Source: a virus
Virus genome (UHGV): UHGV-0105864
Reading direction: 5' to 3' (one strand)
DNA length: 17,358 bases
Below, in pieces: positions 10,010 to 10,957 of the stretch; positions within the stretch are counted from its first letter, which is position 1, and each line of letters starts with the position of its first letter. A program made the translations under genes and the position numbers. The notes below the pieces were generated by a model. The model did not search any database. It was given only the letters and a program-made list of their open reading frames with translations, and was not told the DNA's origin.

Positions 10010-10957
10010 ATGAGCAATACAGCAAAAATCTACGATTTCAGCGCCGCACACGAGCGCAGGAGCAACAGGATGGAGAACCAGAAAACTGGTTACATTCCGT
10101 TGTACCGGAGCATTCTGAAACAGTCATGGGCGAAAGATGTTTATCTTCGCACCCTGTGGGAAAACCTTCTCCTGAATGCCGCCAGAAAGCCATACAAAGC
10201 GAATTTCAAAGGTCATGAATGGCATCTGCAACCCGGTCAACTGGTTGTGACAGCAGCTGATTTAGGTCTTCAGTTATGCGACAGACATGGCAAGCCAGCA
10301 AGCCGTGATCAGGTTGAGCGGATGCTTCAGGTTTTTGTGAAAGAGGGGATGATCTCCATTGATGGAGAGAAGCAAAAAGGCCGTGTGATAACCATCACAA
10401 ATTACCATGAATATGCTCAAAAAATGGACAATTTACCCGCACATGAAGCCGCACAAACAACCGCACATGATGCCGCACATGATGAAGCCAGCAATAGCGC
10501 GGCTTTCAGCGTACATGCCGCACATGAAAGCGCACATGAAGCCGCACAAACAACCGCACATCATGAACAAGAAGGTATTAACAAGAATATAAATAATACC
10601 CCCCTACCCCCCAATGGGGGAGGCGATGGGCAGGTTAAACCTGAACGTCGCAAGGCAGAACGAATCGACTACGAATCCTTCCTGAACGCCTACAACACCG
10701 AAGTCGGTGACAGACTGCCACACGCTGTTGCGGTCAACGAGAAACGAAAACGCCGCCTGAAGAAAATCATCCCGCAACTGAAAACGCCAAACGTGGACGG
10801 TTTCAGAGCGTATGTCAGGGCGTTTGTGCATCAGGCCAAGCCGTTTTACTTCGGAGACAACGACACGGGCTGGACGGCTGATTTTGATTACCTGCTGAGA
10901 GAAGACTCGTTAACGGGAGTTCGGGAAGGGAAGTTTGCAGACAGGGGGATTGCATGA
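10010..10957 (+). CDS. Replication initiation protein (functional analogue of lambda O) containing the origin iterons
   Basis: 315-aa ORF between c1 and the helicase gene; the central part is encoded by tandem 12-bp repeats ([15 protein letters not shown]...); stop overlaps helicase start. Confidence 0.75.
10437..10565 (+). repeat. Origin-of-replication iterons: two clusters of four 12-bp direct repeats (CCGCACAnnAnn) inside the initiator gene
   Basis: CCGCACA cores at 10437, 10449, 10461, 10473 and at 10518, 10530 (variant GCGCACA), 10542, 10554; includes a 29-bp exact direct repeat (10440-10468 and 10533-10561). Confidence 0.75.

Follow-up and report, generated by a model that had tools for sequence, protein, structure and literature searches.

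What is a strictly periodic array of short direct repeats doing inside the coding sequence of a replication gene? The question is raised by the virus genome UHGV-0105864, analysed here as one stretch of 17,358 nucleotides (hereafter the window), where such an array lies within the gene of an O-like replication initiator of 315 amino acids (aa), located at 10010..10957 on the + strand, and is followed by an AT-rich tract and a C/G-rich inverted repeat. The segment 9900-11100 is 99.8% identical to the E. coli K1 phage CUS-3, a P22-like Lederbergvirus, and the window as a whole corresponds to a lambdoid early-right region with the order repressor, cro, cII, a 90-aa open reading frame (ORF), the 315-aa ORF, a helicase gene and nin genes. 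In the CUS-3 record (CP000711), the 315-aa gene is labelled O, and an origin is annotated nowhere. From the sequence comparisons reported below, we put at roughly 80% the probability that this array is where a lambdoid, P22-like prophage of the CUS-3 type has its origin of theta replication, embedded in the part of its own initiator gene that encodes the linker between the two protein domains.

The gene product matches the Pfam family Phage_rep_O (PF04492) over aa 20-132 (E 3e-15, 56.9 bits for a cut-off of 28.7) as well as PHROG 345, i.e., "replication initiation O-like" (4e-100). Two domains can be distinguished, namely an N-terminal winged-helix domain (aa 21-135, encoded at 10070..10414, +), presumed to read the repeats, and a C-terminal domain (aa 190-315, encoded at 10577..10954, +), presumed to recruit the helicase, the repeat array encoding aa 143-185 in the linker between them. 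The AlphaFold2 model of the N-domain (predicted local distance difference test, pLDDT, of 80) exhibits the helix-strand order of a winged helix-turn-helix and comprises a single winged-helix domain; every Foldseek match to it in the PDB is a winged-helix DNA binder (CRP, MarR, ArsR, CodY or ORC), and a search of the PDB with the initiator sequence returned no match up to E 1. Over about aa 190-315, the C-domain is 97.6% identical to HK97 gp54 (O) and 60.5% identical to P22 gp18, and a C-domain of this type always adjoins the gene of a 458-aa DnaB-type helicase. Here, this gene lies at 10954..12330 (+; P22 gene 12 type; Pfam DnaB_C 1e-77 and DnaB 5e-13; PHROG 19) and its product is the presumed partner of the initiator. 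The module is as such of the P22 type, with a gp18-type C-domain beside a DnaB-type helicase and no P-type loader. An origin inside the initiator gene, as a sequence-only reading of this DNA had proposed, is supported by the Phage_rep_O match, the helicase gene downstream and the homologous position of both the experimental origin of lambda and the annotated origin of P22.

The array itself comprises eight cores, four in each of two clusters that are 45 bp apart, with a period of strictly 12 bp. The heptamer CCGCACA is exact at 10437, 10449, 10461, 10473, 10518, 10542 and 10554 and takes the form GCGCACA at 10530. Cluster A (10436..10483, +; core CCGCACAT) consists of the four 12-mers CCCGCACATGAA, GCCGCACAAACA, ACCGCACATGAT and GCCGCACATGAT, and cluster B (10517..10564, +), which adjoins the AT tract, of GCCGCACATGAA, AGCGCACATGAA, GCCGCACAAACA and ACCGCACATCAT. 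Conservation within the repeat extends over positions 2-9, position 1 varying freely. The inter-cluster spacer (10484..10516, +) contains the motif AGCAATAGCGCGGCT at 10488-10502 and a degenerate ninth copy, GCGTACA (10509-10515), which is out of register, 9 bp before cluster B, and is a perfect GCGCACA in many relatives. An exact direct repeat of 31 bp (10438-10468 = 10531-10561) has an offset of 93 bp, which is the true higher-order unit of the array. In the 17.4 kb of the window, CCGCACA occurs nine times for 1.96 expected, a count attained in 0 of 200 shuffles, and both arrays are the sole tandem repeats found by TRF (score >= 40). The repeats are direct and non-palindromic, with no inverted pairs. 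Read in frame, the 12-mer is xCC-GCA-CAy-nnn, so that the repeats encode peptide repeats within the 315-aa ORF; as a by-product, they also generate a 61-aa ORF in another frame (10407-10592), rich in His, Pro, Met and Lys. As for the earlier sequence-only claims, the period, the two clusters, the peptide repeat and the spurious His/Pro-rich ORF are all found again; the eight CCGCACA cores have to be amended for the one starting with G and for the ninth degenerate copy at 10509, and the exact repeat given as 29 bp is 31 bp in length.

Immediately right of cluster B lies an AT-rich tract of 34 bp (10565..10598), presumed to be the DNA-unwinding element; its AT-richness at 10566-10598, already remarked upon, corresponds to a GC fraction of 0.18 against 0.46 for the window and ranks 27th lowest among 17,326 segments of 33 bp. 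Then comes, at 10599..10620 and as previously described, the C6/G5 element, i.e., C6-TA-C6-AAT-G5 (CCCCCCTACCCCCCAATGGGGG), which can be divided into a tandem TACCCCCC pair and a short C5/G5 inverted repeat at 10608-10620.

To what extent are these parts maintained as DNA rather than as protein? Between the window and the Klebsiella phage ST16-OXA48phi5.2, compared over eight orthologous repeats, core positions 3-8 are changed in 0/48 cases against 13/48 for the other repeat positions (Fisher 1e-4), and the third-codon positions inside the core are unchanged in 16 out of 16, while 24 of the 43 four-fold degenerate sites of the N-domain coding have changed. In a sequence logo of the 12-mers, position 1 of the repeat, a first codon base, is occupied such that the residue is P, A, T, S, G or C, and codons 1 and 2 have invariant synonymous third bases. 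Since the residue-changing base is free and the synonymous core bases are fixed, selection would act on the DNA and not on the peptide. Concordant figures came from the IMG/VR, where 64 contigs with the same N-domain, representing about 40 haplotypes with loci 99-100% identical, are to be taken as a census and not as a sample of diversity: variable sites amount to 9/64 in the core versus 18/32 outside the core (p 3e-5), and to 0/34 in the AT tract versus the same 18/32 non-core repeat positions (p 7e-8). The AT tract is also conserved in the related loci L007, L009 and L013-L015. Judged from these alignments, conservation in excess of what coding explains is seen for both cores and AT tract and, to a weaker degree, for the C/G repeat.

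Further evidence comes from natural exchanges of domains among homologues, for which the proteins and their encoding DNA were collected (a Klebsiella variicola protein with AQITAH repeats, P0078, has no contig on record). In L005 and L006, the N-domain is only 47% identical to that of the window, with essentially the same C-domain and helicase; at the same place, these loci have two sets of three 12-mers with the core CGATRA instead of CCGCACAT and zero CCGCACA. The encoded linker peptide, SPDEPCDK in the L005 type, is quite different, yet these loci retain a period of 12 bp, a pair of clusters and the spacer. Conversely, the CUS-3-type N-domain is found fused to three other types of C-domain, and the CCGCAC(A/T)T repeats and the AT tract are always kept. 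L007 has a phage L-type C-domain followed by a 478-aa helicase, L009 a more P22-like C-domain, and L013-L015 (Klebsiella phages ST16-OXA48phi5.2 and Mulock, Yersinia phage vB_YenM_210.17) a lambda-type C-domain with the lambda palindrome, then a Phage_lambda_P homologue. These last three are natural chimeras with their junction at the right edge of the AT tract, which is where the mosaic junctions with other C-domain types fall. Over the loci compared, one C-domain goes with two iteron types and one iteron type with four C-domains, and CCGCAC(A/T)T 12-mers accompany the same N-domain in Escherichia, Salmonella, Klebsiella and Yersinia phages. The repeats are thus far from absent in homologous initiator genes: those with the same N-domain keep them, and the diverged one has other 12-mers instead.

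How does this arrangement compare with origins already known? In lambda (iterons at 39034-39118), P22 (annotated rep_origin) and HK97, four dyad repeats of about 19 bp with a 20/24/23 spacing, an AT tract and an inverted repeat lie in the homologous linker-coding segment. As in lambda, the putative origin of the window is in the linker coding of a Phage_rep_O initiator gene, downstream of pR-cro-cII, with repeats, AT tract and inverted repeat in this order; and in lambda, the N-domain sets the site specificity and the C-domain the helicase partner (PMC7466680, PMC3349717). The likeness to the lambda ori drawn by the sequence-only reading holds for the order of the parts and fails for the iterons, which are 12-bp direct repeats, in two clusters and variable in number, whereas lambda has four 18-19-bp dyad iterons, fixed in their 20/24/23 spacing and bound by O dimers. 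The four dyad iterons of about 19 bp of the lambda/P22/HK97 subtype are lacking in the window, its N-domain is only distantly related to that of lambda, and its partner would be a phage DnaB-type helicase where lambda has a P-type loader acting with the host DnaB. With P22 gene 18/12 and HK97 gp54/gp55, the window shares the C-domain, the 458-aa DnaB-type helicase and ACCCCC(Y)TACCCCC-N3-4-GGGGG right of the AT tract, but those phages have lambda-like N-domains and dyad iterons of about 19 bp, the N-domain of the window being of another subtype.

The closest layout is the putative ori in gene 18 of phage L (GenBank MW013503, rep_origin), a segment which its authors describe as the likely, i.e., predicted, origin (G3 2021, PMC8022706). 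It has 3+3 direct 11-mers TGTCCAACGGA, with the spacer motif AGTAATGACGCGGCT between the clusters, then an AT tract and an inverted repeat, as in the window; L gp18 aligns with the initiator of the window at BLASTP E 1.5e-12 with 23% identity over the full length, and at 26% in the N-domain alignment. Phage L differs in its period (11 instead of 12 bp), repeat sequence, C-domain type (that of L007), 478-aa helicase and inverted repeat. Beyond phages, the iteron origins of theta plasmids (RepA, RepE, pi) likewise combine tandem direct repeats in variable copy number, a winged-helix initiator that is probably monomeric and an AT-rich unwinding element; unlike the 12-bp repeats of the window, with the origin inside the initiator coding sequence, plasmid iterons are 17-22 bp long, their Rep proteins have two winged-helix domains and DnaA boxes are usual. 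A DnaA-dependent, plasmid-like origin was considered and rejected, TTATNCACA (one mismatch allowed) occurring 17 times for 14.7 expected, never within the origin, with the nearest more than 200 bp away. That distant O-type initiators bind repeats of their own inside their own genes is already in the literature, and so is variation in the number of iterons (PMC7466680), but in the literature searched, there seems to be no description of the present type of 12-mer.

In the mechanism that we infer, from binding and its stoichiometry to unwinding, helicase loading and origin activity, the N-terminal winged helix would bind the direct 12-bp repeats (core CCGCACAT), probably with one domain per repeat and head to tail. 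One domain per repeat in this orientation is expected because the sites are non-palindromic, and head-to-tail binding is further suggested by the pairing of a single winged helix with a core of 8 bp that recurs every 12 bp, in contrast to the dimers of lambda on dyads. The resulting nucleoprotein array would then destabilise the adjoining 34-bp AT tract, and the C-domain, of the HK97 gp54/P22 gp18 type, would recruit the DnaB-type helicase that the phage itself encodes, no loader of the lambda P type being involved. Both AT opening and helicase recruitment are extrapolated from the biology of lambda and P22 (PMC7466680, PMC3349717, PMC8022706). At the right edge, the C/G inverted repeat may be a DNA element belonging to the C-domain/helicase module.

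Several observations weigh against this interpretation. The structural matches of the N-domain in Foldseek are weak, with a best E of 5e-3 and TM (template modelling) scores of 0.4-0.5. A full-text search of the literature for the repeat sequence returned only unrelated matches, to an 11-mer, and no paper quoting it. The co-variation of repeats and N-domain is supportive and not decisive, since the N-domain coding and the repeats are adjacent and their co-inheritance could be plain linkage. The sequence logo of the 12-mers is partly circular, its regular expression having fixed positions 3, 4 and 7; it was not relied on, and the ortholog and IMG/VR population comparisons, which are independent of it, were used in its place. 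For the C/G hairpin, the folding energy is ordinary (-6.6 kcal/mol, z -1.4, with 18/200 shuffles as good), and the inverted repeat is missing in L009. Finally, some contigs are without individual cores (4+3, 3+4 or 2+1+4), and among near-identical genes, the copy number ranges from 3 to about 20, from which it follows that most copies are not individually essential.

This variability calls for a closer look at what "two clusters of four" represents, namely the common state of an array polymorphic in copy number. The same N- and C-domains carry 3 (L002, L003, L097), 6, 8, 13 or 18-20 repeats, and linker length changes in steps of 4 residues, i.e., one 12-mer, or 31 residues, i.e., the 93-bp unit. 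The largest array whose DNA was read, in L004 (3368-3682; E. coli GCA_003075555.1), has 18 in-register 12-mers arranged as 4+5+5+4 with three spacer copies, for an initiator of 357 aa as called. At the other end, the single-cluster form equals the window less exactly one 93-bp unit, a loss as expected, from the sequence, of recombination between the 31-bp exact repeats; the repeats retained in the three 3-repeat variants are the last three of cluster B. The two-cluster form, carried by 63/64 of the parsed IMG/VR contigs and by all the isolated phages examined, is probably ancestral, being common to distant relatives, and no isolated phage with the 3-repeat version was found among the phage records, which are all two-cluster.

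It may accordingly be asked whether only the AT-proximal cluster, with three to four 12-mers, and the AT tract make up the working origin, the distal cluster or clusters and the spacer being accessory, whether regulatory, titrating, handcuffing or simply tolerated duplications. Prophages L002, L003 and L097 (the latter on a 41.6-kb contig), otherwise complete-looking, have genes with a single cluster of three 12-mers, single-cluster forms account for 20/120 protein clusters among the matches listed, and arrays of 13-20 copies exist as well; moreover, the two AT-adjoining iterons of lambda suffice in vitro, and the extra iterons of Shiga toxin (Stx) phages are weakly bound (PMC7466680). Yet these weakly bound iterons of Stx phages are still required (PMC7466680), viability is known for none of the single-cluster prophages, and the two-cluster form recurs not only in the contigs and isolates mentioned above but also in the Klebsiella, Yersinia, L005 and phage L versions. 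In addition, the cores of the distal cluster are as well conserved as the proximal ones between the window and Klebsiella phages. A purely accessory distal half is a possibility that we regard as rather unlikely.

Likewise, the C6/G5 element could be nothing more than the coding of a Pro/Gly hinge (TPLPPNGGG), outside the origin. The T-P-L-P-P motif that it encodes is conserved in the protein, the folding energy is ordinary, as said, and the inverted repeat follows the C-domain, being absent where the latter differs (L007, L009, L013-L015). With the hairpin energetics not significant, the case for the C/G repeat is one of conservation. The element is also present in P22, within the annotated rep_origin, in HK97 and in L005, with a looser version in a Proteus phage, and the bases of the C/G runs, which use rare codons (CCC, CTA/TTA, GGG), are unchanged between the window and P22, for C-domains 60% identical. 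Citrobacter phage Omnitron, with a C-domain of 47% identity, retains C5-N3-G5 in a shifted codon register, CCCCCAGAGGGGG encoding P-P-E-G-E. This register shift argues for a role of the C/G repeat at the DNA level, on thinner evidence than that for the cores. More generally, an inverted repeat travels with the C-domain module and not with the repeats: C5/G5 for the P22/HK97/CUS-3 type, the lambda palindrome for the lambda-type C-domain (Klebsiella phages included), and a perfect 10-nt inverted repeat, TCTCTAATAC/GTATTAGAGA, for the L-type C-domain. The lambda-type and L-type C-domains thereby carry inverted repeats of their own at exactly this position, and a mere hinge seems doubtful to us.

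Very improbable is, at last, that the repeats play no part as DNA and just encode a protein linker of low complexity, prone to slippage (AHEA/AHDA/AQTT), with the true origin elsewhere: linker length is indeed polymorphic in steps of 4 and 31 residues and disorder is predicted for the linker where the model ends, but the conservation is the opposite of that expected from selection on the protein (first codon base free, synonymous thirds of the core fixed, about 56% of four-fold sites changed), the L005-type peptide differs while period, clusters and spacer are kept, and the window has neither another repeat array, nor a comparable AT trough with flanking repeats, nor any enrichment in DnaA boxes.

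If the array is an origin, does it belong to a class of its own? The spacer motif, with the consensus AGYAAYRRCGCGGST, is found in L005, L013-L015 and phage L (locus L019) despite their other repeats or C-domains, and so spans three repeat specificities and three C-domain types; it occupies 10488-10502 in the window, 3456-3470 in L005, 1921-1935 in L013, 1912-1926 in L015 and 3680-3694 in L019. In it, GCG is a fixed codon, and the codon before has a fixed third base while encoding S, G or D; the motif is absent from the single-cluster variants. Two clusters of 11-12-bp direct repeats flanking AGYAAYRRCGCGGST, followed by an AT tract, are common to the window, L005, L008, L013-L015 and L019. 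We would suggest, quite tentatively, that origins of the CUS-3, L005 and phage L types constitute a distinct class of short direct repeats, in which head-to-tail polymers of the initiator assemble on 11-12-bp repeats, tolerate 3 to about 20 copies and share the central motif AGYAAYRRCGCGGST. Were this so, the head-to-tail assembly would be unlike the fixed four-dimer O-some of lambda, and the conservation of AGYAAYRRCGCGGST at synonymous positions, regardless of iterons and helicase domain, would point to an unrecognised ligand that these origins have in common, perhaps a host factor, or else to a structural part played by the motif when the origin fires.

Some other features of the locus deserve mention. 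Besides the array, the initiator gene has within its first 20 codons a lone 12-mer-like copy, GCCGCACACGAG (10043..10054, +), which precedes the array by 393 bp. L002, L003, L007 and L008 have this copy at the same place, the Klebsiella and Yersinia versions lack it, and a synonymous GCC->GCT disrupts it in L005, where other repeats are in use. Its membership in the system is uncertain, as it could be an autoregulatory site or the result of chance. The N-terminus of the initiator (10010-10039, +) is very like that of lambda O, MTNTAKILNF, for DNA-binding domains that are very different, and this likeness lends support to a start at 10010. In lambda O, the N-terminus is a ClpX recognition signal; by analogy, the present initiator may also be unstable, its N-terminus resembling that signal.

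Upstream, the repressor gene (8394-9044) is on the minus strand, and a pR-like promoter, TTGACT-16-GATAAT (9067..9094, +), would give rise to a transcript crossing cro, cII, the 90-aa ORF and the origin; a contribution of this promoter to transcriptional activation of the origin is conceivable by analogy with lambda only. The cII ORF (9332-9712, +) is 126 aa long, as listed and in CUS-3, with a Pfam match from residue 30; given this late Pfam start and the 93-98 aa called in relatives, cII probably begins in truth at an ATG inside the ORF. A strong terminator-like hairpin (9661-9688, -), with a 12-bp stem then a T run, lies in antisense orientation at the cII 3' end and has the position of the oop RNA terminator in lambda and P22. 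The 90-aa ORF between cII and the initiator (9735-10007, +) has a GAGG ribosome-binding site and ends 2 bp 5' of the initiator ATG; it matches PHROG 2519 (2e-57, function unknown), is called in most related loci and is unannotated in CUS-3. An Rfam scan of the whole window retrieved two tRNAs alone, with nothing in or near the origin and no match to an oop family; the two tRNAs, tRNA-Asn(GTT) and tRNA-Thr(TGT), are neighbours at 16127-16282 (+), in the late-regulatory part of the prophage.

What, then, would this origin mean beyond the window? The accepted picture of lambdoid replication is unchanged by it. The module nonetheless extends well past CUS-3, since it occurs in about 60 records of Stx2-converting phages, including TL-2011a from the Norwegian O103:H25 outbreak, and the N-domain with its repeats is also present in Klebsiella and Yersinia phages. 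A correlation between toxin production and the type of replication protein has been reported for Stx2a phages (PMC4645166). As such, a defined specificity of origin and initiator would serve for typing and for building ori-plasmids, as well as for asking whether iteron copy number, from 3 to about 20, tunes replication and hence the dose of toxin. The module also provides naturally occurring exchanges of domains and of sites, in which one can study how the specificity of the initiator and the choice of helicase are recombined.

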